Shown in pieces: positions 20,638-35,632 of a DNA stretch of 36,635 bases; within the stretch, counting starts at the first letter, position 1, and each line of letters opens with the position of its first letter. Below the pieces are notes generated by a model that was given only the letters and a program-made list of their open reading frames with translations, was not told the DNA's origin and ran no database searches. The DNA is from Acutalibacteraceae bacterium. GTDB lineage: Bacteria > Bacillota > Clostridia > Oscillospirales > Acutalibacteraceae. Both the position numbers and the translations under genes were made by a program. The stretch lies in NCBI GenBank assembly GCA_045543505.1, contig JAZQMR010000037.1:1-36635 (forward strand). Reading direction: 5' to 3'.

Positions 20638-21345
20638 GCAATTGCTAAATTTTCATATATCCGATGCGATCTCTATGCATAAACAGCAGTAGAGAGTGTT
20701 TATGCATCTGCAAATTCTTTGAATAGCAGTAGGTTTTTCGGACAAACCTCGTAAGATAGTGGCGCAAAAGCCGGTTCATACGCTCAACGGTGGGCATATG
20801 CGCTTTTCCAGTGAGATGTTTTGTGGGGGCGATGAGATTGCATGCCAATGGTTCGATGTGTAAAAATTTGCATCAATATGGCTAATTTTATTCGCGAGTT
20901 TTTTGGAAGTGTTTTGTTTCTCGAGTGCCAACAAGCCGCTTTGTGTCGCGGTCTACTGATGTCCAGAGCCAGATGTTTTTTTAAATTTACGCACAACTCA
21001 TCGAGCTCCCAAAATATCGACTTTTTCGTCTTTTTTAGGAACTTTCTCTAATTCAACGCCGGCTTTTTTTACCCAGTTTATGACAGAAACATGGCTGACT
21101 TTAAGAATTCTTTCGATTCTCCTAAAGCCATTTCCTTCCAAATACAACTGTATTGCTTTTCGTCTGATATGCTCCAGGTAGCCGCGTTGTCCTACCGTGT
21201 AGTGACATCCACATTTTTTGCATAGATATCGCTGTTTTTGGTTGTTGAATCCGCTTTTTACTCGTTTTTCGCTCCCGCATTTCGGGCATTTAAGTTCTTT
21301 ATCCATACACTCATTTTAAACTATATATCGGTTTTTAGCAATGTC
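20638..21345 (-). mobile_element. IS1-family element (third lineage), both ends present, transposase frameshifted
   Basis: Ends GCAATTGCTAAATTTTCAT (20638-) and the reverse complement of TTAGCAATGTC (-21345). InsA-like ORF 20998-21306 (CPKCGSEKRV...YLCKKCGCHY plus HTH). DDE pieces (...DELCV..., ...VERMNRLLRHYLTRFVRKTYCYSK...) lie in other frames. Confidence 0.75.
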
Positions 21346-21559
21346 TTAAATTTTATTGACAACACTCGCTAATCGCCGAATTTCAAGCTGAATATTTGAT
21401 GGCCGACCGTGGTTATGACTATGATAAGCACCCCTATAAACTTCGTCATCTTGTTAAAAATGCATTTTTGCACCTTAAGAAATGGCGCGGTATAGCCGCT
21501 CGTTACGTAAAAATGTTGCATCTTTTGTCGCGTCAGTTCAAATTAGATGCATCGCTATA
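21346..21559 (+). mobile_element. Second, internally deleted copy of the IS5-family remnant
   Basis: Starts with the same TAAATTTTATTGACAAC...CGAATTTCAAGCTGAATATTTGATGGCCGACCGTGGTTATGAC as 9918-. It lacks the middle part and resumes at ...YKLRHLVKNAFLHLKKWRGIAARY. Confidence 0.65.
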
Positions 21560-22164
21560 TGTGTGAGCGAAAAACGAGTAAAAAGCAGATCCAAAAAACA
21601 AAAAACAGCGGTGTTTGGTAAAAATTGTGGTCAACTATACAGTGGGATAGCGCGGTTACCCGGAAAATATAATATGAAAAGCAATATAGTTGCATTTGGA
21701 AGGAAAGGGTTTTAGAAGAAATGAAAAAAGCTTAAAGTTAGCCACGCTTCTGTGACGAATCTGCCAAAAAGCGGACACGAAACCCACAAAAAGATCCCAA
21801 AAGACGAAAAAGTCGATGTTTTGGCGCTAGATGAGTTGTGTGTACATAAAAAACATCTGGCTCTGGACATCAGTAGACCGCGACACAAAGCGGCTTGTTG
21901 GATTTTACGTCGGAATTCAAGGAACAAAATTAGTCATATTGGCGCAAAGTTTTATGCATCAGACCATTGGCAGGCCTACAATCTCATCGCCCCCACAAAA
22001 CATCTCTCTGGAAAAGCACACACACCGTCGACTTATGAATAACTACCTCGCGAGATTTGCCCGAAAAAACTATTGCTATTCGAAGAGCCTGCAGATAATT
22101 AAGTGCTCTCTTTTGCTATTTATGCATAGGGATTTTATTGGATGCATGAAAACTTAGCAATGCC
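21560..22164 (+). mobile_element. 5'-truncated, heavily decayed copy of the IS at 20638-21345, in opposite orientation
   Basis: Starts at the equivalent of InsA codon ~10 (GAGCGAAAAACGAGTAAAAAGC). Shows the same DELCV...LALDISRPRHKAACW string as the other copy (out-of-frame reading of both) and ...YLARFARKNYCYSKSL. Right end GGATGCATGAAAACTTAGCAATGCC (-22164). Confidence 0.65.
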
Positions 22165-22185: not shown

Positions 22186-22551
22186 CTACACAAACGAATA
22201 AATTAAAATTCCAGTAAGGATTAAAATTAAAGAAAAAAACTTTTTTTTCGTTAACTTTTCTTTAAAAACAACTACTCCGAAAAAGGTAATGTAAATATAA
22301 CTTGTTGCCTCAAGGGCGGGGCCTAGCGACAAAGGAATAACTTTGTATGCAAAAATTGATAAAAAAGTTGTTCCGAAAAATATAACATAAGCTCCTAAAA
22401 CTAACGGATTCAAATACTCTTGCCAAAAATTATCATACTTTCTTAAGCTTGCCTTTTTTAGCATAACCTGTGAAATTGAGCTTATGAAAACGCCCAGCAA
22501 CAATATGCCTGAATAAAATAAAACTTCACTACTCATCGACATTTGCCTCAT
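22186..22551 (-). CDS. Small four-TM EamA/SMR-like membrane protein (ArnE/ArnF-like flippase half)
   Basis: 121 aa with four hydrophobic segments. Overlaps its 125-aa paralogue-like neighbour by 23 nt. Last gene of the operon. Confidence 0.6.
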   Translation of the reverse strand: MRQMSMSSEVLFYSGILLLGVFISSISQVMLKKASLRKYDNFWQEYLNPLVLGAYVIFFGTTFLSIFAYKVIPLSLGPALEATSYIYITFFGVVVFKEKLTKKKFFSLILILTGILIYSFV

Positions 22552-22906
22552 CTAAATTACTTGATTTTGTGTATAAAACAATGCCTAGTATGATTAAAAC
22601 TGCGCCCAGAACCTTCCCGAAAGTTATTGCCTCGCCGAAAATAATTGCCCCCAAAAAGATACCCCAAACTACAGTCACTGCTTTATTTGCGAACGCTGTT
22701 GTTAGCGGCAATACCTTGATTATCTTTTGCCAGGCAATCGCATATACAAACAAAATTAGGAGGACAACTCCATAGTAAAAGAGAAACGGAACACTCAAAA
22801 AAGTTTGCATTCCAGCTAACTTGCTGAAAACACCTCCGCATGAATACACGAGCAGTAATAGATGTAAAAAAATCAAAGTCTTAATTTTCACCCAGGAACC
22901 CACCAT
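22529..22906 (-). CDS. Small four-TM EamA/SMR-like membrane protein (ArnE/ArnF-like flippase half)
   Basis: 125 aa. LPLTTAFANKAVTVVWGIFLGAIIFGEAITFGKVLGAVLIILGIVLY is a typical EamA/SMR C-terminal half. Confidence 0.6.
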   Translation of the reverse strand: MVGSWVKIKTLIFLHLLLLVYSCGGVFSKLAGMQTFLSVPFLFYYGVVLLILFVYAIAWQKIIKVLPLTTAFANKAVTVVWGIFLGAIIFGEAITFGKVLGAVLIILGIVLYTKSSNLDEANVDE

Positions 22907-22914: not shown

Positions 22915-23859
22915 CTATAAAGTGTTTTTTATTATCTTCGATGATTTTTCAAGAGCTTGTCTTTCCGCCAGGTCTAGCTCTTCAATGATAATTTTTTCTA
23001 CACCATTTTTACCAACTACGCAAGGAACACTCAACGCCAAGTCAGACAAACCATATTCTCCGTGCAAGTCGATCGAAGCACTAAGCACTTTCTTCCTATC
23101 ATTTTTTATCGCATCAATGATATTGGAAATGCTGGTCGCTATCCCATAGTTTGTCCGAATTTTTCCCTCAATTATACGCGTGCTCATGGTTCTAGTGTCA
23201 TTCGCCAACTTTTGCTTAATCGACTCATCAAGCGCTATTTTTTTACTTGCACAAAAGCTGTCAATCGGCATACCATCAACGTTTACCGTGCTCCATAGCG
23301 CAACTTGAGAATCGCCATGCTCACCAATAACCCTCGCATCAACTTTCTTGAAATTTTGAGTGCCTATGTACTCCGAAATGACATTTGTAAAACGCATACT
23401 GTCTAAAGAACAGCCAGTCCCAAATACCGTACCTTTAGGCAAATTAAGCCACTCTATCATTTTGTAAGTTATAACGTCTACAGGATTCGAAACAATCAGC
23501 ACGATGCCTTTTGTATAGTATTTTTTTATCTCGTCCGCAACCGTTTTTGCGATCTTCACGTTATCATTGACCATGTCGAGCCGAGTCTCATTTAGCTTTC
23601 TGCCTCGACCACAAGTCACCACTATAACGTCGCTATCTTTTATGTCGCAATAATCGCCCGCCACGACCCTGCAGTTGCAAATTTCCTTCAAGCTACAGTG
23701 TATATCAAGCCTTTCGGCCTCTGACACGGATTTATTCCTATCTATGAGAACTATCTCCGTCGCGATGTTCCTTAACATCAAGGCATAGGCGGTGCTCGCC
23801 CCTACAAAGCCCGCGCCAATAATACTAACTTTAAAATCTCTTTTTTGATTTTCTGCCAC
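22915..23859 (-). CDS. LDH/MDH-family L-2-hydroxyacid dehydrogenase with a malate-type specificity residue
   Basis: KVSIIGAGFVGASTAYAL Rossmann motif, GTGCSLDSMRF (Asp168/Arg171 equivalents), IGEHGDS (His195). The substrate loop reads CGRGRKLNETRLD where LDHs have AGA(N/R)QKPGETRLD. Confidence 0.85.
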   Translation of the reverse strand: MAENQKRDFKVSIIGAGFVGASTAYALMLRNIATEIVLIDRNKSVSEAERLDIHCSLKEICNCRVVAGDYCDIKDSDVIVVTCGRGRKLNETRLDMVNDNVKIAKTVADEIKKYYTKGIVLIVSNPVDVITYKMIEWLNLPKGTVFGTGCSLDSMRFTNVISEYIGTQNFKKVDARVIGEHGDSQVALWSTVNVDGMPIDSFCASKKIALDESIKQKLANDTRTMSTRIIEGKIRTNYGIATSISNIIDAIKNDRKKVLSASIDLHGEYGLSDLALSVPCVVGKNGVEKIIIEELDLAERQALEKSSKIIKNTL

Positions 23860-23871: not shown

Positions 23872-25062
23872 TTACAGCACGCTAAATTTTCTGGATAATT
23901 CTCGAATTAAGTCATAGCCGTCCCAAACTAACGTGAAATCCATTGATTTTCCCATCGGTACCGCACGATCCACCCCAAACGGACGGCAATTTAAGAAAAA
24001 CTCTTTTATTACAGTAGTACTCAACCCAAAATAAGTCAAGGTCTGGCATTTAACGTCGCATAACGGCAAGATATCTGCAAGCTCATTTGCATCATATTCA
24101 AAGAAGAAACCGCTATTATACTTATAATCCATCAGATTTTCAAATAAATTCTCTAGTTTTACGCGGGTTATGAGTTGATCTTCTTGTTGCATTAGGTGAA
24201 CATCGTGCTCTGCCGCTACTTTAAACAATGCATTTAGCTTCCCAACTACTTGAACGGGCTTTATTTGATACTTGTTTTTAACAAGCTCGTGTATGCTTTG
24301 CCAAAAAATTTTCTTAGCCTTTTCTTTCTCGCCACCAAGCCAAATAATTATCCGCGGGGACGTGCACGCATTTTGGTCAGTAAAGAACGTGTCGTTGTAA
24401 AAATCGATAGCAATATTTTCTTTGTTAGCCATTTTTAGGTACGCATCAGCATCTATCACGGCTATCGAGTGTCTGTCGGAAAAGGTTATTTCCGTCGCAC
24501 GAGGACTTAATGGTGATTGGCGAATATTTTCAATCGTCTGGTCTCCACCCCAAATAACTCTCGTATGACAAATCGACGAAAAGAAGTCCGTAATTTGCTT
24601 GTCAGAGGCGTACTTCACCATGCAAATGTACGGCGCTAAATGCGCGAACTCCCCAGACAAAAGCTCATTAATGCACGCACATATTATTTGAACTTGCGCA
24701 AAATCTTTTGCCGGAAGGCGAACAATGTTTGCATTCCCAGCAAGTAAGCCGCTTGCAAAGCTAAACGCAAAATTCACCGGCACATTAGAAGGCGTGCTAT
24801 GAAAAACTATACCTCGGCCTAGCCGAGTTGATAAATCATCATATTTTTCTTTCTCTTTTAGGAGCGCTGCTCTCCTGCACCAAAAACCAAAAGTCGCAAT
24901 GTCGGAGTATTCCTTGCCATAAATCATAAACTTCTTTGATAGCGCATTGAGAAAAGCTATTGCTTCCTCGGAAAAAGGAACTAATGGCCTTAATTTTTGC
25001 ATCTTTTCAAGCGTTTTTTCATCGCCAACCACAAACGTCAAATTATTAAAACTTGCTTGCAT
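23872..25062 (-). CDS. LuxC-like acyl-CoA/acyl-protein reductase (ALDH superfamily)
   Basis: About 396 aa from ATG 25062 (MQASFNN), overlapping the upstream stop by 17 nt. HSTPSNVPVNFAFSFASGLLAGNANIVRLP and a candidate catalytic Cys in DQNACTSPRII resemble the LuxC family. Adjacent to the LuxE-like gene. Confidence 0.7.
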   Translation of the reverse strand: MQASFNNLTFVVGDEKTLEKMQKLRPLVPFSEEAIAFLNALSKKFMIYGKEYSDIATFGFWCRRAALLKEKEKYDDLSTRLGRGIVFHSTPSNVPVNFAFSFASGLLAGNANIVRLPAKDFAQVQIICACINELLSGEFAHLAPYICMVKYASDKQITDFFSSICHTRVIWGGDQTIENIRQSPLSPRATEITFSDRHSIAVIDADAYLKMANKENIAIDFYNDTFFTDQNACTSPRIIIWLGGEKEKAKKIFWQSIHELVKNKYQIKPVQVVGKLNALFKVAAEHDVHLMQQEDQLITRVKLENLFENLMDYKYNSGFFFEYDANELADILPLCDVKCQTLTYFGLSTTVIKEFFLNCRPFGVDRAVPMGKSMDFTLVWDGYDLIRELSRKFSVL

Positions 25063-26128
25063 AAGTATCGCTGCACCCTCTAATCTCCGCATTTTTTAGC
25101 CTACCATTAACTTTAAAGTACTTGCCAAGGCGGCCACATGGACAATCATCTTCGCCCAAAATCACACCTTCATCCTCCGTCAAAAGAGAATGCCCAGGAT
25201 AAGATACTGGCAAAAGCGAAACCACTTGAATAATGCCCGGCTCGCCAAAGGCGCAAGGCTGTAAATCTATCGCTCTTCTGGTGATTACGTCTGAAAACAC
25301 GCTGGCGTGCAAGTGTCCATACTCACAGGCCATATAAATACAACCGGTTTGCTCCACCATACCATAGTAATCATGAATATCGCTTAAGCCGCACACGCTT
25401 TCAAGTCTGTCTTTAAACTCAGCATGCGATACCGCTTCTGAGGCGAGTTTTTTCCAGCCTCCACCGTGAATTAAAATTCCCTTCGATAGATCAAACTTTT
25501 TATTCGCATTTAAAAGCTCTTTATAAAAATGCTGCCAAATCATAAAAGTAAATCCAAATATCAGGATCTTTTTACCTTTATGTTTGTCTAAAAATTTTTC
25601 TATCTCATCCACATTTAGGCTCATGTCGTCGTTTAGCGCATAGGTCTTATCCGCGCCAAAGATAGAAAAGCCTAAAATTCCAGCACCTCTGGCCGAAAAC
25701 ATCTTTCTATCTTTAATTACAGATGGACAATCAATAATCAGCATCGGCAATCTAGCCGAACCGGTGAATTGAGACACGATATTCACTAAGGTCTTCTGCT
25801 GATTATTCGCGGTCTGCCTATCAACAAATATCTTGGACACAGCTTGCCCGGTTGTCCCTGAGGATGTCATCACCTTGAAAACATCTTTTTGCTCTACGCT
25901 TTTTAGTTCCAGCTCTTTGAAAAGGCTTACTGGAACAAACGGCAAGTCATAATAGCTTTTTATTTTTGAATCATCAAAGCTAATCGCCTGCAACATATTT
26001 CTATACATATCGCAGCTTTGATAATGATGTTTCGTCAAAGCTAAAAGATTTTCCGTCAAGAAGTTTTCTTTTTGACTCTTGCTAAAGGAAAATGGAGCTG
26101 TACTTAATATTTTCTCGTAGTCAATCAT
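25046..26128 (-). CDS. LuxE-like acyl-protein synthetase (PaaK/F390-synthetase fold)
   Basis: ATG 26128 (MIDYEKIL) sits in an ATGATTGA overlap with the ligase stop, after GGAGGAG. LPFVPVSLFKE...VMTSSGTTGQAVSKIFVD is the LuxE-family N-terminal signature. Confidence 0.75.
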   Translation of the reverse strand: MIDYEKILSTAPFSFSKSQKENFLTENLLALTKHHYQSCDMYRNMLQAISFDDSKIKSYYDLPFVPVSLFKELELKSVEQKDVFKVMTSSGTTGQAVSKIFVDRQTANNQQKTLVNIVSQFTGSARLPMLIIDCPSVIKDRKMFSARGAGILGFSIFGADKTYALNDDMSLNVDEIEKFLDKHKGKKILIFGFTFMIWQHFYKELLNANKKFDLSKGILIHGGGWKKLASEAVSHAEFKDRLESVCGLSDIHDYYGMVEQTGCIYMACEYGHLHASVFSDVITRRAIDLQPCAFGEPGIIQVVSLLPVSYPGHSLLTEDEGVILGEDDCPCGRLGKYFKVNGRLKNAEIRGCSDTYASKF

Positions 26129-27533
26129 AATGCTCCTCCAAACTTGGATACAAAACTTTCCCGGATTCATTTCGAGGAATTTCTTCAATAAACTTTACTT
26201 TAAATGCGGAGTGATTTATCCCTGTCTTCTGCGAAATAAAATGCAAAATCTCGTCAACTTTATTTTGAGAGTCCACAAATATATACATACAGTCATCCAT
26301 TCCGCAACAAGCACAGTCGAGCTCTTTAAATTCAGTTTTTATTAATTGCTCTGTCTCATCCAAGTTAACGCGATTTCCAAATATCTTCAAAAACCGTTTT
26401 TTTCTTCCAACAATGTAGTAAAAACCTTCCTCATCAAATTTTGCCATATCACCGGTATGCAAAACACCATTTCTCTCGTCGCCCTTAGCCAGGTCTTCCC
26501 TACTCTCGGCATAGCCCAAAGTAACATTGTCTCCCTTATATACTAGTTCCCCGGCTACATTCGGCTGAGTAATTTTTTGACCGTCTTCCCCTTCGAGCGA
26601 AAACTCTCCGCCTGGAACAGCTATACCTATGCTGCCTGCCTTTTCCAACGATTTCTCCTGCGGTAAATACGACATTCTTGCGGTTGCCTCAGTTTGGCCG
26701 TACATCACCACGAAATTTTTATCGTTATCTAAGGCGTACTTTGCGAATTTTTCATGCAGAGCTAACGGCAATCTTCCTCCAGCTTGAGTCATCGTCTTTA
26801 AATACGGTAAATTCATTCTGAAAAAACGCAATTTATCTAACATCTCATAGGTATATGGGACTCCTCCGAATGACGTCACCTTATATTCTTTTAGCTGAGT
26901 CCAGAAATCTTTTTGCATTAGCGTTTTTTCAGTCAAAACAATTGTAGCACCGACTAGCAAATGGCTATTAATAATTGACAATCCATACGTGTAATTCATC
27001 GGTAAAGTCGTAATTGCACTTTCAATTGATGTTAAATCCAAGTACTTCGCAATCGCATCCATATTGGACTGCACATTAACATAACTTTGCCTAACTAACT
27101 TAAAGCTTCCCGTTGAGCCAGATGTTGTCAACAAAAGCGCTAAATCCTCATGCAAACGCTTATTAACATGAAGATTCGTTTTTACTAAGCAATATTCACA
27201 AGAGGAGTAAACCACATCGTATCCACAAAAATTTGCTACTTTGCTTGACGGCAACCACAAATATTCTGGACTATAAGTTTCTACTAAATTTTTCAAAAGT
27301 TTGATGTCTAAATTTGCATCTACCATTAGCGGCACCACGCGGTTATTCAAGAACGTTATGTACCCAACTAAAGAACCTAACGTATTTGAACACAAATTGA
27401 ACACAAGGCTCCTACTAGGAAGATACCCCTTCAGTTGTTCTGAAAGGGTACAAATCTCGTCGTAAGAAAATTCTTTGCCAGACTCCTCTATGACGGCAAT
27501 GTTCTCTTTAAATTTATTTAAGTTCCACATCAT
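26121..27533 (-). CDS. ANL-superfamily adenylating enzyme (acyl-ACP / acyl-CoA ligase)
   Basis: Core motifs LLTTSGSTGSFK, YGQTE, HTGD, GRKKRFLKIFGNRV, PRNESGK. The start (ATG 27533 or 27530) overlaps the ACP gene end by about 20 nt. Confidence 0.85.
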   Translation of the reverse strand: MMWNLNKFKENIAVIEESGKEFSYDEICTLSEQLKGYLPSRSLVFNLCSNTLGSLVGYITFLNNRVVPLMVDANLDIKLLKNLVETYSPEYLWLPSSKVANFCGYDVVYSSCEYCLVKTNLHVNKRLHEDLALLLTTSGSTGSFKLVRQSYVNVQSNMDAIAKYLDLTSIESAITTLPMNYTYGLSIINSHLLVGATIVLTEKTLMQKDFWTQLKEYKVTSFGGVPYTYEMLDKLRFFRMNLPYLKTMTQAGGRLPLALHEKFAKYALDNDKNFVVMYGQTEATARMSYLPQEKSLEKAGSIGIAVPGGEFSLEGEDGQKITQPNVAGELVYKGDNVTLGYAESREDLAKGDERNGVLHTGDMAKFDEEGFYYIVGRKKRFLKIFGNRVNLDETEQLIKTEFKELDCACCGMDDCMYIFVDSQNKVDEILHFISQKTGINHSAFKVKFIEEIPRNESGKVLYPSLEEHYD

Positions 27534-27753
27534 ACTTAGCAAGAATCTCCTTACCTTTTTCAAACGAGCTAAAATCTATAATGTCATCCGTGTCCATCAT
27601 TATGTTGAAGGTTTCCTCCAAGGCTGCAATCAAACTCATATGGCCAACAGAATCCCACTCACCAATAGCCTGATACTCCAGCCCTTCTGTTTGCTCCTTC
27701 GTAATGTTAAATGTCTCCTCGAATGCTTTTGTGTATTTCTCTAAGTTTGTCAT
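27514..27753 (-). CDS. Acyl carrier protein
   Basis: 79 aa, acidic, with a phosphopantetheine attachment motif GEWDSVGHMSLI. Confidence 0.8.
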   Translation of the reverse strand: MTNLEKYTKAFEETFNITKEQTEGLEYQAIGEWDSVGHMSLIAALEETFNIMMDTDDIIDFSSFEKGKEILAKYDVELK

Positions 27754-27783
27754 GATAAAGTTTACCTCTCTATATTTTAGTGT

Positions 27784-28530
27784 TTATATTATTGCGCTTC
27801 CATCGACGCCCAATATTTGTCCAGTAATATAACTTGACATATCAGACGCTAGAAAAACGCAAGCGTTTGCGACATCTTCTGGCGTTCCTATTCTAGCCAT
27901 TCTTATATTTTCTATTTTTTCTTTCTGCTGTGTCTCTGCTACAGCTCGAAACAAATCGGTGTCTATAACGCCAGGCGCAATTGCATTTACTCTTATGTTA
28001 TATGGCGCAAGTTCCTTAGCCGCTGTTTTTGTTAGCGATATAATAGCACCTTTTGAGGACGAATAAGCCACCTGTCCCCTGTTTCCCTCTACACCAACTA
28101 TACTGGATATGTTTATTATACTACCAAACTTTTGTCGCATCATAATCTTTGCGGAAAATTGAAGCAACTTAATCGGCGCAAAAACATTAACCTTGAAAGT
28201 TTCCTCCACCAAGCCATCAGATATCATTCCGATGAGAGCGTCTTTCATCATCCCCGCGTTATTAACCAACGCATCTAGCTTTAATTTTTGATTTTGGATT
28301 TCTCGGCAGGCCCTATTTATAGAACCGCTATCTTTTAAGTCAAAATGTACCGGCCAAATCTCTACATTGAAGTTCTGCGCAACTTCGCTAATCATATTCT
28401 CGAACTCAACACTTTTGCACCTTGCATGTGCCCATATGTTTGCACCATTTCTTGCGCATTCTACAAGCATAGCTTTTCCTATGCCCCTGTTAGTTCCTGT
28501 GATAAAAATATTTTTACCTTTTAACAGCAT
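27784..28530 (-). CDS. Short-chain dehydrogenase/reductase, FabG-like
   Basis: ITGTNRGIGKA, NNAG, and the catalytic YSSSKGA (YxxxK) with an upstream Ser. Confidence 0.88.
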   Translation of the reverse strand: MLLKGKNIFITGTNRGIGKAMLVECARNGANIWAHARCKSVEFENMISEVAQNFNVEIWPVHFDLKDSGSINRACREIQNQKLKLDALVNNAGMMKDALIGMISDGLVEETFKVNVFAPIKLLQFSAKIMMRQKFGSIINISSIVGVEGNRGQVAYSSSKGAIISLTKTAAKELAPYNIRVNAIAPGVIDTDLFRAVAETQQKEKIENIRMARIGTPEDVANACVFLASDMSSYITGQILGVDGSAII

Positions 28531-28545
28531 TATGTTTTTATCTCC

Positions 28546-29271
28546 TTAAGAGCAATGTTTAATAAATACATGGCAAACATCTTTAGCATTAAATCCCAAC
28601 GAAAGATGAACATGCAAAGTGTTTACGTTATTTAAGGAAATGTAAGTAGACATTTTTTTATAATTTCGTCTTATGGCTTCTTTTAAAGGCTTTTCTAAAG
28701 TACTTAACCCTAAACCAGAATTTAAGAAGTCTCTATACATTCCGACTAAAAACGGATAGCATGTGCTGTTGCCAATATCTTTAAATGTGAAGAACCCTAC
28801 GGACTTATCTTTATGTGTTATTTTAAAGGCCTCCGTACCTTTGTCAAGCTCATCTGATATCCAATTTATATACCTGTTCGCAGCTTGCTCGTGAGTAAAA
28901 TGAGGATCTATATAAATTCTATCTGTGCTAAATACACCTTTTTTTATTTCGCAGAAAAGCTCCTCGATGTCATCTTTTTCCATCATAGAGTAAGATAAAC
29001 TATCCATAATTCGTTGCTGAATTGGGTTTAGTTTTATGTCTTTCAAGTCGTGCGTTAGATTTATGCTCGATTCGACATACGTGTATCCCATTTCCTGCAG
29101 CAAAAACATAACATCAAATTTGCCGCTCGGAACCTTTACTACAGTATATTGGCTTTCATTTTGAGGTAACTCTTTTCTTATTTTTTCTATAGTGTCATCT
29201 TTCTCGATTTTTATTTCCCGACAATCTACGCCTAGATTTCGCTTTTCCCATATTGCATCAACAACTTTCAA
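28546..29271 (-). CDS. Putative N-acyltransferase (GNAT-like C-terminal half; WecD-like size and position)
   Basis: 241 aa. The C-terminal part (FFTFKDIGNS..FLVGMYRDFLNSGLGLSTLEK..EAIRRNYKKMSTYISLNNVNTLHVHLSLGFN) looks like a GNAT fold. The assignment rests mostly on context and is weak. Confidence 0.45.
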   Translation of the reverse strand: MKVVDAIWEKRNLGVDCREIKIEKDDTIEKIRKELPQNESQYTVVKVPSGKFDVMFLLQEMGYTYVESSINLTHDLKDIKLNPIQQRIMDSLSYSMMEKDDIEELFCEIKKGVFSTDRIYIDPHFTHEQAANRYINWISDELDKGTEAFKITHKDKSVGFFTFKDIGNSTCYPFLVGMYRDFLNSGLGLSTLEKPLKEAIRRNYKKMSTYISLNNVNTLHVHLSLGFNAKDVCHVFIKHCS

Positions 29272-29282: not shown

Positions 29283-30785
29283 TCAATTTTTAATATATAA
29301 ACACCCAAAATCAGTTAAACCTTGTTGCTCATATCCCTCTATGGGTTGGTCGGTATTAAGCAACAAATATTTGCTTTTTAAATTCTCTAGCGGTCTCTCA
29401 TACAACCACTGGATTCCTATACCCGGATGTAAGTTGGACCACAGCTCAAAATTAAACCAATTGTCTGTTGCTAACGTATTTTCAAAAGGATTTTCTGCGT
29501 CCTCATTATATTTTATTACAGTTTGAATTAATTGAAAGTCTCTCTTTTCGACTTTGATAAAACGATTAACAATCTCTGGAGAGTTAGGCTGAGGAAACAT
29601 TTTTAAATTAAATATAAAAAATACACCAAAAAGAAAAGAAAAAAATTTAAATGAAAAAAATCTTTTATGAATAACTAAATTAACTACTGATATCCACAAA
29701 ATAGGAGCCAATGTCCGATATTCTCGAAAAGAATGCACATCATAAATAAGCAAAATAATAACAAGAGGAAAAAACAATAAACAAAATTGGATAACATAAA
29801 AAGCATCCGGCTTATCTTTGAGAGACAACGACATGAAGTTTTTCCTGCTTTTTTTGAATGCTATTTTTATAAAGATTAAGCCAAAATATATCGTTAATAT
29901 CATCAAACAAATCAGCCTAAAACTAACTTCTATTTTACTTGCAGAATTTAAGCTAAACAGATTTTTCACATTATTTATAAAATTAAAACGAATCCCATCT
30001 AACATAGCTTTTACATTTGATGTATGCATAACACTATACAAGACACCAAATGGATACGGCGCAGTAAATAAAGACACAACAAAATAAAGTCCGCCAGAAT
30101 ACAAAATCCAAAATAGAAATAACTTAGCAAATTTTCTACTGAAATGAAAGTCACTTAAAGCAAATACCGGAGCTAAAAGCAAAACAATGTATATAATTCT
30201 ATAGAAACAGCAAATCGTTCCAAAAATCAGCGTTAAGATTAAAAATACTTTTTTTGTTCTGCCATCAGAGACGCAAACTTTATAGAATGAAGCAAAAAAT
30301 AAAGATAACAATCCATAATTTAACATTTCAGTCATAGCCGTTAGCGCGAACCACATAGCCGGAGTAAAAAATAAATATACTCCTAAAAAACAAAAGGTTT
30401 GAGCGGCACTTGGTCTAAGAATAAAAACCACACCTAAAAAACAAATCGCTGTAAAAAGCATATTAGCAAGTACAATTCCGTTTTCTGGCCAATTTAAAAC
30501 TTTTGCAAAAGGAAAATAAAGTAATGCCGGAAAAAATCCATGCGTGCTAAAACACCCTATTTTAGGAGTTAATTCATTTATACCAATGTATCCAGTCTTA
30601 AAGCCATAATGCACAAAAGAATAGATTTCCCTCCAAAAACCAATCTCATCACTCCAAATTGGCCGACCAGCAAATGCATTTTGCTTTAAAATAAAAGATA
30701 ATATAGCTAACAAAATTACTGGAGATAAGATAAAACAAATATAAGAAAAGTGTTTTAAAATTTTACGGCTATTTAAATTTAACAT
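29283..30785 (-). CDS. Large polytopic membrane protein, GT-C (ArnT/PMT_2)-like, with a C-terminal extracytoplasmic domain
   Basis: About 500 aa from ATG 30785 (TAATG overlap with the upstream stop), about 11-12 TM segments. Acidic motif IWSDEIGFWRE in the first external loop and a soluble tail of about 110 aa. Confidence 0.55.
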   Translation of the reverse strand: MLNLNSRKILKHFSYICFILSPVILLAILSFILKQNAFAGRPIWSDEIGFWREIYSFVHYGFKTGYIGINELTPKIGCFSTHGFFPALLYFPFAKVLNWPENGIVLANMLFTAICFLGVVFILRPSAAQTFCFLGVYLFFTPAMWFALTAMTEMLNYGLLSLFFASFYKVCVSDGRTKKVFLILTLIFGTICCFYRIIYIVLLLAPVFALSDFHFSRKFAKLFLFWILYSGGLYFVVSLFTAPYPFGVLYSVMHTSNVKAMLDGIRFNFINNVKNLFSLNSASKIEVSFRLICLMILTIYFGLIFIKIAFKKSRKNFMSLSLKDKPDAFYVIQFCLLFFPLVIILLIYDVHSFREYRTLAPILWISVVNLVIHKRFFSFKFFSFLFGVFFIFNLKMFPQPNSPEIVNRFIKVEKRDFQLIQTVIKYNEDAENPFENTLATDNWFNFELWSNLHPGIGIQWLYERPLENLKSKYLLLNTDQPIEGYEQQGLTDFGCLYIKN

Positions 30786-31948
30786 TAATAATATGAACCT
30801 CCGTATAACAATACAATATAATAGCTTACCCAAGAAAGTACATGCATACCTAAAACTGCAGATATCACCGTTAAACGATATACAGTTGTTGTCTTAATTT
30901 TACTTAAAAGTTTATACAGAGAAACAACAAACAATACGCCAACTGCAAACTGAGCTCCCCAACCAAAATTACCATCCATCAGCCGCACTCCTGTTTCATA
31001 CAAAAGGGCATAAATAGCAATATTAAAGCTACCTAGCAACCAACCAAATCCGTAGATCTTATCTTTTATTAAATCTCTGTAATTAAAAATTAAAACAACT
31101 AATGGAAAAGCAACGGATAACAACAATGCTGTATATGGATTTTTGGTATATATACTCCAGACCTTAAAAAGTCCAAAAGCTAATTTACTGTTATCGTCAA
31201 AAAGCTGACTTTTTTGCCACAATATTAAAGCCAATGCAGGAAAAACCGTTGTTCCAAAAACTAAATAATTAAAAATATTTTTGCCTTTACCATTTATGAA
31301 GTCAAAAATCATAATGATTAACATACAAAAAGCAAACGCAAGAGTAAAGCTAGGTTTAAACCAAGTAGCTAAAAACAATGATACTGAAAAGCCAAGCCAT
31401 TCTAAAAAAGAAATTTTTCTAGCATGATACTTTCTAAACAACTTAAAAAATAGCAATAACGATAGTAATGCAAATGGCTTCATAGCAATATATGTTGAGT
31501 TATGGTATAGATTAAAAGTCAACATTCCTAAGTAGCGATGTTCGTTTATGACCGGGATGTATATCGGCATGGACATATTACAGATTAAAGCAGCTAGATA
31601 CAGTTTTTCGTTGCTTATTTTTCCATGCACCAAATGTTTTAACAATATAAAGGTGAAATATATACTAACCAAGGAAAACAACGTTAAAGTAAGAGAAATT
31701 AGAAAGCATCTATGAGGAAGCCTCCAAAGAAATCCTAAAATTACATACATTAAGCTATAGGCACTTCCTGGTTGCAAACCGGCACGTATATGCGCAGGTA
31801 AATCTGATAATTTTACGTTGACAACGCCATCATATTTAGCTTGTTCTCTAAATAAAAAAATTAAACTTAAAGCGTAAACGATAGTTATAATCGCAGATAA
31901 AAACACATTAATTGAAAAATATTTTCTTTTCGTCATTGCTTTCGTCAC
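30785..31948 (-). CDS. Polytopic membrane protein of unknown family (possible glycosyltransferase or polymerase)
   Basis: 387 aa, about 10-11 TM segments, translationally overlapped on both sides. No motif I can assign. Start at ATG 31948 or 31936. Confidence 0.5.
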   Translation of the reverse strand: MTKAMTKRKYFSINVFLSAIITIVYALSLIFLFREQAKYDGVVNVKLSDLPAHIRAGLQPGSAYSLMYVILGFLWRLPHRCFLISLTLTLFSLVSIYFTFILLKHLVHGKISNEKLYLAALICNMSMPIYIPVINEHRYLGMLTFNLYHNSTYIAMKPFALLSLLLFFKLFRKYHARKISFLEWLGFSVSLFLATWFKPSFTLAFAFCMLIIMIFDFINGKGKNIFNYLVFGTTVFPALALILWQKSQLFDDNSKLAFGLFKVWSIYTKNPYTALLLSVAFPLVVLIFNYRDLIKDKIYGFGWLLGSFNIAIYALLYETGVRLMDGNFGWGAQFAVGVLFVVSLYKLLSKIKTTTVYRLTVISAVLGMHVLSWVSYYIVLLYGGSYY

Positions 31949-32891
31949 ACTCCGTTTTTTTCTTCAGGTTTATACCGCTTTTCACAACATATTGCGGGGC
32001 ATTATTTAAGTTAATAAAAATCCGGCCTACGTACTCACCTATCATACCAATAACCATCAGCGTTAAACCGCTAAAAAATGTCAACAGTGAAACAATGCTA
32101 CTATAGCCGATAGCAATATCAGGCGTAACAAACAGCTTATTTATAACAGTATACAAGCCAAAAATAAACCCAATAAAAGCAAATATTACGCCGGCGATGG
32201 ATGTAATTCTCAGCGGCTTTACCGAAAAAGACGTGAAACCATTGAGCCAAAGGGCTAAAAGCTTCTTTAAGCTATAATTGCTCTTTCCCTCCTGACGCTC
32301 ATTCTCTTCCATCTTAACGTTCGCGATATTAGAGGTTGTCCTTAGCAACAAGCCAGCTATATACGGATAACAATTTTGATATTTTATCATCTCGTCAACG
32401 ACAAACCTCTTAATAGCACCAAAATTGCTAAGGCTTAATCTTTTGGGTTTGCCTATCAAGTGCTCAGCCATTATGTCATTCACTTTGCTGCCAAAGTTCT
32501 TAAAACGAGACTGCTTTTTTATGCCATAGTCAGCAATTGAAACATCAAAACCGTTCCTTAGCGGCCCTATCAAATCAAAAACCTTTTCAGCAGGACATTG
32601 CCCGTCATCATCAAGATATATAACGATATCTCCGCTGGAGTAGCGAAATCCCGCCATCAACGCTGCGTGTTGGCCAAAGTTTTTTGCAAAATTTATAGCA
32701 ATTATATTTTCATCACATCGCGCTAACTGCTCTATCACAAGGCTTGTCCCATCCTTAGAAAAATCATTGACCAGAATAATCTCATAGCTAAAGTTTTCAT
32801 CGCTAGCAACTGCCGTTTTTATCGAGTTAACCACATCAGTTATGGTCTTTTCGGAGTTATAACACGGTATGACAAACGATAATTTGCTCAC
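31908..32891 (-). CDS. Polyprenyl-phosphate glycosyltransferase, GT2, ArnC/GtrB/CsbB type
   Basis: KLSFVIPCYNSEKTI...ILVNDFSKDGT...YLDDDGQ, plus two C-terminal TM helices (ITSIAGVIFAFIGFIFGLY, IVSLLTFFSGLTLMVIGMIGEY). The 327-aa size is typical of this subfamily. GTG start at 32891. Confidence 0.8.
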   Translation of the reverse strand: MSKLSFVIPCYNSEKTITDVVNSIKTAVASDENFSYEIILVNDFSKDGTSLVIEQLARCDENIIAINFAKNFGQHAALMAGFRYSSGDIVIYLDDDGQCPAEKVFDLIGPLRNGFDVSIADYGIKKQSRFKNFGSKVNDIMAEHLIGKPKRLSLSNFGAIKRFVVDEMIKYQNCYPYIAGLLLRTTSNIANVKMEENERQEGKSNYSLKKLLALWLNGFTSFSVKPLRITSIAGVIFAFIGFIFGLYTVINKLFVTPDIAIGYSSIVSLLTFFSGLTLMVIGMIGEYVGRIFINLNNAPQYVVKSGINLKKKTECDESNDEKKIFFN

Positions 32892-32935: not shown

Positions 32936-33114
32936 GGGAGTCCCCTAAGCGAGCATCTGGCAGCCGCGAGGCGCCGAATGCCCGCAGGGCCTTCGGCCAG
33001 CCCAGCGCTCAACTTTGTTGAGCGCTGGGCCACAAAGAAAATAATATTTTCTTTGGCCTCGCGGCCCGGCTGCAGCAGCTAATTCAAGTGGGAATGCTCA
33101 CTTAGGGCACTTCT
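32936..33114 (+). mobile_element. MITE copy 4, perfect 8-bp target duplication, inserted into the 3' end of the aminotransferase gene
   Basis: Ends GGGAGTCCCCTAAGCGAGCAT and ATGCTCACTTAGGGCACTTCT. The core is nearly identical to copy 1. AATTTTGC occurs at 32928-32935 and again at 33115-33122. Confidence 0.85.
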
Positions 33115-34224
33115 AATTTTGCTAATTATAAACTCCACATCCGAAGGTTTTATGCCGTAGTAAAGTGGCAACCTTATGATACGTTCGCTTTCTTTGGTCG
33201 TAAATTTATCTTCGCCGTTAAACCTACAATATTTCAGGCCTGCAGGCGCAGAATGAAGTGGAATATAATGGAAAACTGCACATATTCCATTGTCCTTCAA
33301 GTAAGAAAGCAGCCTCGTGCGAACATCAAGATGTTGCACTTTAATGTAAAACATGTGTGCGTTATGAAGGCAACCTTCTGGGATGAAAGGCAGCTCTAAA
33401 AGGCCTGCCTCCGCCAAACTCTTTAGTCCCTCGTAATATAATTTCCAGGTTGCCATACGATTATCATAAATTTTCTCAGCCATCTCGAGTTGCGCCCACA
33501 AGCAAGCCGCATTTATGTCGCTCGGCAAGTATGAAGAGCCTTTATTTACCCAGGTATATTTGTCAACTTGACCTCTAAAGAACTTGCTCCGATCCGTACC
33601 CTTTTCCCGGATTATCTCGGCCAACTCAGCGTCCTTTTGGTCTTTTAAGAGGAGCGCTCCCCCCTCGCCCATGCTATAATTTTTTGTCTCATGGAAGCTG
33701 TAGCACCCATAGTCGCCAATTGTCCCGAGCGCTTGCCCCTTATAGTAACTCATTACACCTTGAGCGGCATCCTCAACTACTTTTAAGTTGTATTTTTGAG
33801 CGAGCTCCATTATTTTATTCATCTCGCACGACACACCCGCATAATGGACTGGCACGATAGCCTTTGTTTTCGGAGTTATCGCGGCTTCAATTAGATTCTC
33901 ATCGATGTTCATGGTATCAGGCCTAATGTCAACAAAAACGACCCTTGCGCCGCGCAGCACAAAGGCATTTGCCGTGGACACAAAAGTATACGACGGCATT
34001 ATCACTTCATCGCCCGGCTGTATGTCGCACAACATAGCTGCCATTTCCAGCGCGCTCGTGCAAGAAGTGGTCAACAGCGCTCTTGTCGCACCGGTTTTCT
34101 CCTCAAACCAACGGTTACATAGTTTTGTAAATTCTCCGTCACCGCAAACTTTCTTATTGTCGTAGGCCTTTTTTATATAGTCCAGTTCAGTGCCAATAAA
34201 GGGTGGTTCATTAAAGTTAATCAT
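33079..34224 (-). CDS. wecE: dTDP-4-keto-6-deoxyhexose 4-aminotransferase, DegT/WecE family
   Basis: Collinear with E. coli WecE almost throughout (FNEPPFIGTELDY...CGDGEFT...IQPGDEVIMPSYTFVSTANAFVLRGA..VFVDIRPDTMNIDE...VPVHYAGV.CEM...FHETKNY...IREKGT.RS.FFRGQVDKYTW...NAHMFYIK...FHYIPLH..PAG...TTKESER..RLPL). The last 11 codons and the stop lie inside the MITE. Confidence 0.9.
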   Translation of the reverse strand: MINFNEPPFIGTELDYIKKAYDNKKVCGDGEFTKLCNRWFEEKTGATRALLTTSCTSALEMAAMLCDIQPGDEVIMPSYTFVSTANAFVLRGARVVFVDIRPDTMNIDENLIEAAITPKTKAIVPVHYAGVSCEMNKIMELAQKYNLKVVEDAAQGVMSYYKGQALGTIGDYGCYSFHETKNYSMGEGGALLLKDQKDAELAEIIREKGTDRSKFFRGQVDKYTWVNKGSSYLPSDINAACLWAQLEMAEKIYDNRMATWKLYYEGLKSLAEAGLLELPFIPEGCLHNAHMFYIKVQHLDVRTRLLSYLKDNGICAVFHYIPLHSAPAGLKYCRFNGEDKFTTKESERIIRLPLYYGIKPSDVEFIISKIRSALSEHSHLN

Positions 34225-34246: not shown

Positions 34247-35602
34247 TTATGATGGTAAATAAACTAAGATGTACATATCAACTACTATAAAAGCTAAAAC
34301 CGAACATAGTGCGCCAACAAAAGCATACTGCTGATGCCTTGGTAGCAATTTCTTTGTAAAAAACTCGAACCCTTTAGCAACAAAATAAGCAATTGCCGGA
34401 AGGGCTGGGTAACAATATCGCCCTTGTGCTTGAAAATCCACAGTGTAGCTGTTGTAAATACTCAGCGCCACAGTAACAATTATACAGACCATAAAGCTTA
34501 CTATTATACTAGTCATAAATTTGTCCTTAAAGAGGCTTTTGTGACAAATTTTCTCAACAGCGATACAAATCAAACCTATGATAGCGACAGCAAAAAACAT
34601 TTTATAGAAAAGATATATCCTATCCGGCAAAGGAAATTGCAGATATCCAAAGACGCCAATAAAACTATGATACGTTCCTCTTAACCAACCCATTTCGCCA
34701 AAAAGCATCTGAAATAAACTTATTCCTTGCTTTGCAACGGTTACCCTGTTGGCTGGTTTTAAATAATCTAGTCCATATAAATTTCCATACATACGAGAGG
34801 TCTTAAACCCTAATAAATCCCCGTACACAATTAAATGTCTGACAAAAAAGTAACCTGTAATCAAAAAGACGATACAAAACATAAAGAAAATATATTTAAA
34901 GAGCAACCGATAGTCATTGCAGCGCTCTTTAATAAAGAAAGCAACAAGGAAAACAATAGCGCTACATAGAATCCACGCGTAGCTATTGTAGTAAGTTACA
35001 GCACATATACCAATTCCTATTGCCATTGTGCTACAAATTTTAAAATCTAAGCCTTTCGTCGTGCATAGAGCCCATGAATACATAATTATGGCTACACCAA
35101 GCAAGGCAAGTATGTCATTGTTTATGTAGCTTGCAAGAAAGGCAAACTGCGGAATAAATGCGATTAGTGAAATCATTATCCAACGAGCAGGGGAGTCAAA
35201 AAATATTTTTGAAGTTTTAATGATAAAACATATGATTCCAGTTGCCGCAAACACACTTACCATACGAGCTGACAATAAAATGTAAAACTCATTAGAGGTA
35301 AATAAGCTTGCCAATTTCATAAAAACATAATTTAGCACATGAAGTAATAAGTTAGGCATATGAGCATAAGAAAAGCCCCAGATTGAGTTTGTCGTCTCTT
35401 GCCCAACGGGCAGTCTGTTATTGTTAAACATAAACAGCGACACATCATAGCGCATATACTCATCCGGAGCATAATTAAATGGCTTTTTTATAGCCCACAA
35501 GAAATAAAACGAGAAACACACTATACAAAACAATATTTCGTACCAAGCAAGACCACATAGTTTTATTTTTCTCAGCCTTTGGCTCAACAACATCAGCTCC
35601 AA
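34247..35602 (-). CDS. Polytopic membrane protein, GT-C (PMT_2/DUF2142)-like
   Basis: 451 aa, about 11-12 TM segments. Motif APDEYMRYD lies in the first external loop. TTG 35602 or ATG 35593 start. First gene of the operon. Confidence 0.55.
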   Translation of the reverse strand: MELMLLSQRLRKIKLCGLAWYEILFCIVCFSFYFLWAIKKPFNYAPDEYMRYDVSLFMFNNNRLPVGQETTNSIWGFSYAHMPNLLLHVLNYVFMKLASLFTSNEFYILLSARMVSVFAATGIICFIIKTSKIFFDSPARWIMISLIAFIPQFAFLASYINNDILALLGVAIIMYSWALCTTKGLDFKICSTMAIGIGICAVTYYNSYAWILCSAIVFLVAFFIKERCNDYRLLFKYIFFMFCIVFLITGYFFVRHLIVYGDLLGFKTSRMYGNLYGLDYLKPANRVTVAKQGISLFQMLFGEMGWLRGTYHSFIGVFGYLQFPLPDRIYLFYKMFFAVAIIGLICIAVEKICHKSLFKDKFMTSIIVSFMVCIIVTVALSIYNSYTVDFQAQGRYCYPALPAIAYFVAKGFEFFTKKLLPRHQQYAFVGALCSVLAFIVVDMYILVYLPS

Positions 35603-35632
35603 CTTTTGTTAATGACACTTAAATTATATCAC

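Follow-up and report, generated by a model that had tools for sequence, protein, structure and literature searches.

Introduction

The perosamine of Vibrio cholerae O1 is N-acylated with 3-deoxy-L-glycero-tetronate, and the route to this group is said to have stood as a homology-based proposal since 1995. The tetronate genes are VC0248-VC0252 and include that for the 471-residue WbeL (PMC3441752); wbeN is annotated as a reductase/synthetase and WbeM as an iron-containing alcohol dehydrogenase. Here we describe a related gene set in a 36,635-nucleotide contig from an Acutalibacteraceae bacterium (GenBank assembly GCA_045543505.1, contig JAZQMR010000037.1), the whole of which we call the window. 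An initial annotation, made from the letters of the window alone, had likened six of its genes to the V. cholerae set, and the published gene descriptions bear out its account of that set.

A second described system lies in the flagellin islands of Aeromonas group II and of Enterobacteriaceae, which hold genes for an acyl carrier protein (ACP), a 3-oxoacyl-ACP reductase, an AMP-dependent synthetase, luxE and luxC (PMC7874193, PMC4875605). The flagellin glycan of A. piscicola AH-3 has a pseudaminic acid (Pse) derivative of 376.14 Da as its first sugar and an unassigned unit of 102 Da at its end. The main linking sugar of A. hydrophila ATCC 7966 has a mass of 422 Da, the 376 Da sugar being minor (bioRxiv 10.1101/2024.05.20.594992). 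The kind of cassette itself is already known, both from the Wbe tetronate genes and from these flagellin islands.

We put at about 60% the probability that the window operon encodes an ACP-based factory which makes the N-acyl group of a WecE-derived amino sugar, followed by export in the style of Arn and Gtr systems. That the group is specifically 2,4-dihydroxybutyryl we place a little short of an even chance. New here are the Gram-positive wall-polymer setting, the coupling to WecE, a WecD-fold GNAT and ArnC/GtrB-type export, a short-chain dehydrogenase/reductase (SDR) where V. cholerae has an iron alcohol dehydrogenase, and a dedicated malate-type dehydrogenase.

Results

A fourteen-gene operon

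The cassette is part of a 14-gene operon on the minus strand (22186-35602, 13.4 kb), which exceeds the span of the initial annotation and contains a malate-dehydrogenase-like gene and an export half that had been omitted there. The genes share one strand and are spaced by -49 to +30 nt, the one exception being 187 nt after wecE. The order of transcription is memC, WecE, GT2, memB, memA, GNAT, SDR, ACP, ligase, LuxE, LuxC, LDH-family and the SMR pair, as follows (GT2, family 2 glycosyltransferase; LDH, lactate dehydrogenase).

34247..35602, minus strand: memC, polytopic membrane protein of 451 residues, candidate extracytoplasmic GT-C-type transferase
33079..34224, minus strand: WecE, dTDP-4-keto-6-deoxy-D-glucose 4-aminotransferase (DegT_DnrJ_EryC1, E 2.7e-87)
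31908..32891, minus strand: GT2 polyprenyl-phosphate glycosyltransferase, ArnC/GtrB/PgfS-like
30785..31948, minus strand: memB, polytopic membrane protein of about 387 residues
29283..30833, minus strand: memA, polytopic membrane protein of about 516 residues, candidate GT-C-type transferase
28546..29271, minus strand: WecD-fold two-domain GNAT, weak on Pfam (NCBIfam WecD, E 2.4e-9, residues 6-231)
27784..28530, minus strand: classical SDR, FabG-like (adh_short, E 1.8e-51; FabG-type models about 1e-60)
27514..27753, minus strand: ACP of 79 residues, phosphopantetheine Ser35 in WDSVGHM
26121..27533, minus strand: ANL (AMP-forming) ligase of 470 residues (AMP-binding, E 6.5e-36)
25046..26128, minus strand: LuxE-like acyl-protein synthetase of 360 residues (Pfam LuxE, E 6.7e-64)
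23872..25062, minus strand: LuxC-like thioester reductase of 396 residues (Pfam LuxC, E 4.9e-26), catalytic Cys233
22915..23859, minus strand: lactate/malate dehydrogenase-family enzyme (Ldh_1_N, Ldh_1_C), directly after LuxC
22186..22906, minus strand: two overlapping small four-helix DMT/SMR-like genes of 125 and 121 residues (EamA, E 5.6e-7 and 7.9e-6)

Open reading frames (ORFs) and domain matches agree with the initial annotation on the minus-strand positions of its six genes, GNAT to LuxC, and the motifs quoted there are all present (TTSGSTGSFK, YGQTE, GRKKRFLKIFG, PRNESGK, MTSSGTTGQAVSKI, DQNACTSP and WDSVGHMSLI). Judged by the lengths of homologues, the true starts of LuxE (26128), the ligase (27533) and LuxC (25062) are later than those of the longest ORFs; with the revised starts the overlaps are 20 nt for ACP/ligase, 8 nt for ligase/LuxE and 17 nt for LuxE/LuxC.

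The array is not a chance assembly: the operon as a whole is found again elsewhere, and about 80 species genomes share its ligase-LuxE-LuxC core. At locus L001 (we number the homologous loci with the prefix L) 13 of the 14 genes stand in the same order, memC being without a counterpart; the enzymes and the SMR-like pair are 62-89% identical to the window proteins, two of the membrane proteins 48-49%.

Comparison with the tetronate genes and the flagellin islands

Like wbeK-L-M-N-O (rfbK-O) of V. cholerae, the operon combines a small ACP and an ANL ligase (about 470 residues) with LuxE and LuxC domains, an alcohol-forming reductase and an N-acyltransferase, and like that set it would serve a 4-amino-4,6-dideoxyhexose. 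LuxE and LuxC are separate genes in the window but one polypeptide, WbeN, in V. cholerae. The term split-gene form, used in the initial annotation, is apt, as fused LuxE-LuxC homologues of 750-870 residues do exist; in one of these, P0125 (828 residues), the LuxE part is 53% and the LuxC part 37% identical. Vibrio was found neither among the 80 closest LuxE loci nor in the clusters of ten fused representatives, and a homology search seeded with P0125 returned gut-metagenome relatives only.

Family scans detected no iron-containing alcohol dehydrogenase in the window operon, where the SDR fills the reductase role. The SDR, for which the initial annotation had suggested the aldehyde-to-alcohol step, is of another family than WbeM and would thus be its functional analogue and not its homologue. 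The acyltransferase, a WecD-fold GNAT, probably also differs from WbeO, which we take to be a hexapeptide-repeat enzyme. The sugar would be of the dTDP-linked Fuc4N/Qui4N type, from WecE, and delivered outside the membrane on an undecaprenyl phosphate carrier, whereas V. cholerae uses GDP-perosamine and builds the sugar into the O-antigen backbone. Finally, the window adds a dedicated malate-dehydrogenase-like gene to the V. cholerae complement.

The five gene types of the flagellin-island cassette are those of the window and likewise form an unbroken run that follows a GNAT gene (pseH in Aeromonas), though with ACP and SDR in the opposite order. These islands serve pseudaminic acid on flagellin, whereas the window cassette would act on a sugar from WecE, in the context of a Gram-positive wall polymer; flagellar, pse and neuB genes were not found among the window ORFs scanned.

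Proposed acyl-building enzymes

The LuxC-like and LuxE-like proteins share their folds with the solved bioluminescence LuxC-LuxE complex (7xc6) and keep its catalytic apparatus, namely the nucleotide loop and C-terminal Cys of LuxE and the active-site Cys of LuxC. A profile of 22 LuxC-like sequences aligns to 7xc6_A (E 1.3e-8), and the DQNAC motif (D229-Q230-N231-A232-C233), invariant in 22 homologues, falls over DQQAC. The LuxE-like protein aligns end to end with 7xc6_E (E 3.6e-18), and the SSGT(T/S)G nucleotide loop and C-terminal Cys352 (RGCS) are conserved. Mean column identity in the LuxE-like family is 74% over 7 aligned sequences, members from Acetobacterium and Synergistales included. 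The catalytic cysteines and the adenylation motifs are therefore kept on proper alignment, and given the common folds and catalytic apparatus the sequence of reactions from carboxylate to acyl-AMP, thioester and aldehyde is probably shared. The LuxE-like protein is predicted to activate a carboxylate and then to carry it on Cys352.

The likeness to luminescence enzymes proposed in the initial annotation holds for folds and catalytic residues but not at the level of equivalog scores. Identity is about 20-25%, the window LuxC-like protein is about 80 residues shorter, and both proteins fall far under the cut-offs of NF052251 and NF052244 (LuxC, 32 vs 750 bits; LuxE, 86.8 vs 550 bits). The pair would thus seem to work like LuxC and LuxE while standing outside those equivalog families. 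The predicted substrate is a short polar diacid, in contrast to the myristate of bioluminescence. We consider it highly improbable that the cassette handles ordinary fatty acids as LuxCDE does, with a fatty aldehyde or a fatty-acylated 'liposugar' as the product. LuxE and LuxC are, it is true, the closest named families, the reductase bears the public Gene Ontology (GO) tag 'bioluminescence', and the five-gene set has been interpreted in terms of fatty-acid channelling or a liposugar (PMC7874193, PMC4875605). The equivalog scores speak against such a product, as does the neighbouring malate-type dehydrogenase, and LuxD, luciferase (luxAB) and ketosynthase were not seen in the window. Moreover, a fatty aldehyde would be unable to N-acylate a sugar, a second activating enzyme would be redundant, and the Aeromonas glycan masses (376 and 102 Da) are small and not lipid-sized.

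The carrier scores only 18 bits on Pfam PP-binding, under threshold. Its identity as an ACP, assigned from the start, is borne out by a 22-sequence family profile that matches ACPs exclusively in the PDB (best 2lml, E 5.7e-5, with WDSxxHM); nearly every one of the 62 family members has WDS(V/I)GHM, and Ser35 does not vary. The ligase, whose top NCBIfam model is an exosortase-A-associated acyl-CoA ligase (E 3.4e-47), is predicted to load the acid onto this ACP. Oxalate-CoA ligases are its closest solved structures and o-succinylbenzoate- and malonyl-CoA ligases are in the top 20, at low identity; luciferases and fatty-acyl-CoA synthetases are likewise among its solved relatives. The diacid-activating relatives may lend slight support to a diacid substrate. 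The SDR, with the motifs TGxxxGIG, NNAG and YxxxK, reaches 226.7 bits on TIGR01830 against a cut-off of 297.75 and is predicted to reduce an aldehyde (or keto group) of the ACP-bound acyl chain to the alcohol.

A putative malate-type dehydrogenase beside LuxC

The LDH-family enzyme scores just below the cut-offs of both the lactate dehydrogenase model (298.6 vs 303.55) and the malate dehydrogenase model (267.6 vs 283). The column of 'Gln102' holds Arg in the window protein (GRGRKLNETR) and Q in the lactate dehydrogenases 1a5z and 2zqy, of T. maritima and L. casei. By tblastn, 21 homologues have LuxC close upstream, in most loci as their immediate neighbour, and Arg102 is invariant in all 21 of these cassette-linked proteins, with R109, D168, R171 and H195 conserved too. 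Arg102 is an established malate-dehydrogenase signature, and Wilks et al. reportedly turned a lactate dehydrogenase toward oxaloacetate in 1988 with Q102R. We therefore predict from these residues that the enzyme converts oxaloacetate to L-malate as a precursor supply. A short hydroxy or dihydroxy acid had been guessed in the initial annotation, and that guess is strengthened because this gene adjoins LuxC.

A proposed route from a dicarboxylate

Two carboxylate activators, one carrier and one thioester reductase together point to a dicarboxylate precursor, and Arg102 concurs. Because an aldehyde cannot be an N-acyl donor, one carboxylate should stay as the thioester while the other is reduced. 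From an L-specific dehydrogenase one would expect (S)-malate, the C4 reduction of which would give (S)-2,4-dihydroxybutyrate, that is, 3-deoxy-L-glycero-tetronate.

In the route we propose, the Arg102 enzyme of the LDH family would make L-malate from oxaloacetate, and the ANL ligase would adenylate one carboxyl of the dicarboxylate and thioesterify it to the 79-residue ACP. The LuxE-like protein would activate the second, free carboxylate and use its C-terminal Cys to pass this group on to the LuxC-like protein. There the catalytic Cys would receive it, and the thioester would be reduced to an aldehyde for the SDR to take to the alcohol. A short hydroxylated acyl-S-ACP would result, most likely the (S)-2,4-dihydroxybutyryl form, the V. 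cholerae O1 'tetronate'. WecE would convert dTDP-4-keto-6-deoxyglucose to a dTDP-4-amino-4,6-dideoxyhexose, the rmlA and rmlB steps being necessarily encoded elsewhere, and the WecD-fold GNAT would place the acyl group on the 4-amino group. The ArnC/GtrB-like GT2 would then pass the N-acyl sugar to undecaprenyl phosphate, the SMR-like pair would flip the lipid-linked sugar, and at least one of the three polytopic proteins would join it, on the outer side of the membrane, to a wall polysaccharide, to a teichoic-type polymer or to a protein. WecE and the GT2 are the steps backed by strong family matches, the others being read from fold, motifs and context.

The masses known from Aeromonas bear on the identity of the acyl group. 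A dihydroxybutyryl group is calculated at 102.032 Da, and Pse5Ac7Ac with one acetyl replaced by dihydroxybutyryl at 376.148 Da, a suggestive match to the two observed units. The 422 Da sugar is about 106 Da over Pse5Ac7Ac; by arithmetic only, an exchange of one acetyl for an acyl group near 148.04 Da (C5H8O5) would account for this excess.

We regard it as unlikely, if worth keeping in view, that the same architecture acts on another small dicarboxylate and so makes a different short hydroxy-acyl group: 4-hydroxybutyryl from succinate, 2,5-dihydroxypentanoyl from 2-hydroxyglutarate, 3-hydroxypropionyl from malonate, or 3,4-dihydroxybutyryl from malate thioesterified via C4. No sequence feature fixes the substrate of the ligase, whose low-identity solved relatives include oxalate-, malonate- and succinylbenzoate-activating enzymes, and Arg102 implies only a second carboxylate on a 2-oxo acid. 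Accessory genes also vary by locus (transketolase, FabA-like, NeuB, thiamine diphosphate (ThDP) enzyme, thioesterase), so widely that the cassette family clearly makes more than one product. On the other side, 2,4-dihydroxybutyryl of V. cholerae O1 is the sole chemically known product that papers tie to a homologous set, the L-LDH-like Arg102 enzyme best fits oxaloacetate to L-malate, and the Aeromonas unit of 102.03 Da fits C4H6O3 and not 86, 116 or 72 Da. In sum, the interpretation as a tetronate-type route, as put forward in the initial annotation, is supported at the level of homology.

Amino sugar, proposed acyl transfer and export

WecE, which the initial annotation had taken as the source of the amino sugar, does lie in the same operon and is above two curated cut-offs (TIGR02379, 637.1 vs 434.85 bits; NF008687, 629.8 vs 375 bits). 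The GNAT belongs to a family of 120 proteins, mostly called 'hypothetical', whose profile matches GNAT domains. Its AlphaFold model, built from a 65-sequence alignment, has a pLDDT of 96, and the top PDB match of the model is WecD (2fs5_A; E 2.9e-14, TM 0.76/0.82, identity 14%), in keeping with the GNAT-like label first given to it. From fold and context we predict an N-acyltransferase on the dTDP-4-amino sugar that moves a hydroxy-acyl group rather than acetyl. Compared with the WecE and WecD of enterobacterial common antigen, then, the window WecE is above the cut-offs and the GNAT shares the two-domain fold, whereas the latter is only about 14% identical, under the equivalog cut-off, and predicted to transfer a hydroxy-acyl group instead of acetyl.

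The WecD fold could also mean that the two halves of the operon work separately, the GNAT acetylating with acetyl-CoA as in enterobacterial common antigen and the aldehyde or alcohol of the cassette being used elsewhere, for example for esterification or alkylation of the polymer in a Dlt-like manner. A sugar module without the cassette does occur in D. hafniense, and an ANL ligase with a small carrier is the established logic of DltA and DltC. We judge this arrangement improbable. The GNAT gene is in the operon immediately upstream of SDR-ACP-ligase, with gaps of 15 and 30 nt, and the adjacency is repeated in the distant genomes of L011, L021, L029 and L087; elsewhere the cassette pairs with a PglD-type enzyme and never with both, as expected if the acyltransferase is the outlet of the cassette. 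Dlt-like D-alanylation in particular was considered and rejected, as no operon protein matched the DltB- or DltD-like families and D-alanine ligases are not among the best solved relatives of the ligase.

The sugar module just mentioned is that of L086 (Desulfitobacterium hafniense LOCK01000001.1, 8815-14008), a WecE-GNAT-GT2-SMR-SMR set without the Lux-type cassette. It has a GtrC-like (GT_STM0557_N) protein on the opposite strand, and an SDR, a hexapeptide transferase and a thiolase a few kb upstream; these upstream genes could supply a 3-hydroxybutyryl-type acyl group instead.

Among solved structures the GT2 comes closest to ArnC (full-length match, E 1.5e-42) and then to GtrB 5ekp (E 1.1e-33), and its sequence shows two C-terminal hydrophobic helices. 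Its scores on the ArnC (176.6 bits) and PgfS (171.6 bits) models are each under the equivalog cut-off, which makes it a relative and not an orthologue. ArnC and GtrB load a sugar on undecaprenyl phosphate, and the substrate of ArnC is an N-acylated 4-amino sugar. By homology, the window GT2 is predicted to move the N-acyl sugar from dTDP onto undecaprenyl phosphate. The SMR-like pair gives weak matches to ArnE (E 2.9e-4, 4.8e-4) and also to ArnF, in all from E 3e-4 to 3e-2, amid drug-efflux SMR models, and is in the same neighbourhood in L001, L030, L034 and L050; it is a candidate heterodimeric ArnE/ArnF-like flippase for the lipid-linked sugar.

In memC the first loop carries PDEYMRYD, which in our view resembles the 'DE' loop motif of ArnT/PMT. 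Its position in the syntenic L001 is occupied by a GtrII-family protein (Glucos_trans_II, E 9e-18); a single-sequence AlphaFold model of memC, with a pLDDT of 43.5, was discarded. Homologues of memB are present in the WecE/GNAT/GT2-type loci L001, L028, L029 and L030. memA has the loop motif WSDEIGFW and is 22-25% identical to proteins of L029 and L030, the former of which has a sub-threshold GtrII match (E 8.9e-4).

Taken as a whole, the export half shares with Arn (ArnC, ArnE/F, ArnT) and Gtr/CsbB-GtcA-YfhO systems a GT2 close to ArnC and GtrB; it also has an SMR/DMT-like pair with a weak likeness to ArnE/F and large polytopic proteins, and the proposed substrate is, as for ArnC, an N-acylated 4-amino sugar. 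It differs from Arn in the sugar, the nucleotide and the acyl group, in having no deformylase-type step, and in candidate membrane transferases without a detectable family.

Distribution and modularity of the cassette

LuxE-like relatives number at least 8000 in the protein collection, the best 120 being 69-98% identical. Clustering at 50% left 2189 LuxE-like representatives with E<=1e-3 and 452 with E<=1e-30. A LuxE scan of one genome per species gave at least 600 matches, at least 552 genomes being confirmed, and the 80 closest of these matches were surveyed. They are 64-73% identical and come from Lachnospiraceae, Oscillospiraceae, Limosilactobacillus, Alphaproteobacteria, Smithella, Synergistales, Treponema, Brevinematales, Gastranaerophilales, Bacteroidales and Saccharibacteria; the conservation of the core cassette is remarkable, with 64-78% identity between members from Bacillota, Pseudomonadota (Alphaproteobacteria), Spirochaetes, Synergistetes, Bacteroidota and Melainabacteria. 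The ACP-ANL ligase-LuxE-like-LuxC-like core keeps its order in about 80 genomes of many phyla. ORFs were called and clustered in 79 loci, with the following component counts.

Ligase: 74 of 79 loci
LuxC: 70 of 79, plus 6 LuxE-LuxC fusions
ACP: 60 of 79
SDR: 58 of 79
Split transketolase: 27-28 of 79
PglD-type hexapeptide N-acyltransferase: 25 of 79
Type II thioesterase: 22 of 79
FabA-like dehydratase: 22 of 79
LDH-like enzyme: 21 of 79
NeuB-like enzyme: 20 of 79
GtrB-like GT2: 15 of 79
WecD-like GNAT: 13 of 79
Metallo-beta-lactamase fold: 13 of 79
ThDP (acetolactate-synthase-like) enzyme: 10 of 79

WecD-like (13 loci) and PglD-like (25 loci) acyltransferases never co-occur among the 79 loci, and the WecD-like GNAT is paired with a GtrB-like GT2 in 12 of its 13 loci. 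These mutually exclusive outlets, together with the stand-alone sugar module of L086, mark the cassette as a portable acyl-donor module, and it behaves as though the outlet acyltransferase is swapped to fit the amino sugar. The arrangement of the window recurs in L001, L021, L028-L030, L034, L047, L050 and L074 and, in Proteobacteria, in L011, L016 and L019. Cultured bacteria with a WecE-type locus include Roseburia sp. 1XD42-69 and Lachnoclostridium sp. An131.

A split transketolase (N- and C-terminal subunits) lies beside the ACP in L012, L017, L029, L087 and about 23 others, and is together with an SDR in 25 of 27 loci. This position, nearly always with an SDR, suggests a C2 extension of the aldehyde intermediate. 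In 10 of 10 loci with the ThDP enzyme (L011, L034, L048, L052, L054, L058 and others) it occurs in the cassette with the FabA-like and NeuB-like enzymes. The trio is never found alongside the split transketolase and constitutes a second, distinct mode of acyl-chain elaboration.

Several single loci deserve mention. In L033, from Treponema bryantii (5937-14808), the cassette is flanked by a DegT-type aminotransferase, two GNATs and a GDP-mannose 4,6-dehydratase, a setting that is GDP-perosamine-like and similar to that of V. cholerae O1. At L087 (13572-16049 of a 2.56 Mb contig) the ligase is short (343 residues), LuxE is split (279 and 206 residues) and LuxC was not called; this is probably a decaying copy. 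The cassette is also on plasmids, in L088 (Ponticoccus alexandrii NZ_CP047167.1) and 41 others, carriers including Rhizobium, Priestia, Streptomyces, Salmonella and Escherichia. RefSeq names the plasmid cassette reductase 'acyl-CoA reductase' with the GO term bioluminescence, a label that is probably a systematic misannotation.

Boundaries and genomic setting

Three features mark the edges of the operon.

35623..35651, minus strand: promoter-like site TTGGCA-17-TATAAT with upstream TG, directly ahead of memC, 11/12 matches, the top site on the strand
20998..22157: IS1-type remnants beside the downstream end of the operon, as boundary evidence only
35831..36532, plus strand: IS1-family element beside the upstream end of the operon (DDE_Tnp_IS1, E 4.4e-6, for 36095-36532)

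Promoter-like sites are no commoner in the region than in shuffled sequence, so that the one at 35623..35651 is no more than suggestive. Among the downstream remnants, ORF 20998-21306 has Zn_ribbon_InsA and helix-turn-helix matches, and broken short ORFs of transposase fragments lie between 21482 and 22157. The G+C content of the operon is 0.376, compared with 0.476 at window positions 1-20000, and with IS1 remnants at both ends the operon looks like a horizontally acquired island.

The window also contains tilS, hpt, ftsH and spoVT (32-7369), by which the host is judged to be a spore-forming member of the Bacillota; exact-sequence look-ups of the window LuxC, SDR and SpoVT proteins gave no match. 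Further genes form, on the plus strand, a wall-polymer locus (10334-19141) of GT2, LicD, an IspD/TarI-like cytidylyltransferase, a zinc alcohol dehydrogenase (TarJ-like), GT2, Wzy_C and GT2, with a 512-residue membrane protein without family. This locus may build the polymer that is decorated by the N-acyl sugar. The sole match of a 483-residue ORF (7411-8862, minus strand) is the C-terminal trimerisation (beta-helix) repeat of phage T4 gp5 (E 1.9e-10); around it the GC skew is strongly negative and several plus-strand ORFs overlap. Rfam and tRNA scans of the window gave no matches.

Discussion

Several points weigh against the factory and export pathway proposed here. All functional assignments are by homology, biochemistry was found for no member of the cassette, V. 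cholerae included (a recent study may have escaped the literature search), and the window was compared with the V. cholerae set through published descriptions and not through V. cholerae sequences. Acyl-CoA, not acyl-ACP, is the normal donor for GNATs, and the window GNAT is far under the WecD equivalog cut-offs (37.4 vs 219 and 26.2 vs 195.1 bits). The SDR may reduce a ketone and not an aldehyde, since 3-oxoacyl-ACP reductase models score best. The LDH-like gene is accessory, being present in only 21 of the 79 loci, and Arg102 would indicate a 2-oxo-dicarboxylate that is not necessarily oxaloacetate. O-methylglyceroyl is isobaric with the 102/376 Da match, and no mutant ties these masses to the cassette. 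On the side of the sugar, rmlA and rmlB were not identified among the window ORFs scanned, and memA, memB and memC matched no Pfam or NCBIfam family even in relaxed scans.

The accessory genes invite a broader and more tentative proposal, against which we would still lay the odds: that the common intermediate of the core is an ACP-tethered malate semialdehyde (4-oxo-2-hydroxybutyryl-S-ACP), diversified by swappable enzymes into polyhydroxy acyl decorations, with an acyltransferase (WecD-, PglD- or PseH-like) matched to the amino sugar. An SDR alone would then give 2,4-dihydroxybutyryl, which would account for the V. cholerae O1 tetronate, the 376 and 102 Da units of Aeromonas and the sugar of the window. 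Transfer of a C2 ketol by transketolase, ketoreduction and 2-O-methylation would give 2-methoxy-4,5,6-trihydroxyhexanoyl, a group known from Treponema denticola flagellin (the corresponding Pse derivative is calculated at 450.185 Da), and the ThDP, FabA-like and NeuB-like trio would lead to further products. No transketolase was found within 10 kb of the T. bryantii cassette locus, and the link to Treponema is therefore conjectural.

Serotypes are set by the N-acyl groups of surface amino sugars, as are phage receptors and vaccine epitopes; the classic case is the tetronate of V. cholerae O1. If the idea of a dicarboxylate semialdehyde were true, several unassigned glycan masses would be explained and a widespread misannotation corrected. 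The window offers a compact, self-contained version of such a system, in which the putative precursor dehydrogenase, the acyl factory and the source of the amino sugar lie together with an acyltransferase and the means of export, and the proposed chemistry would be directly testable.

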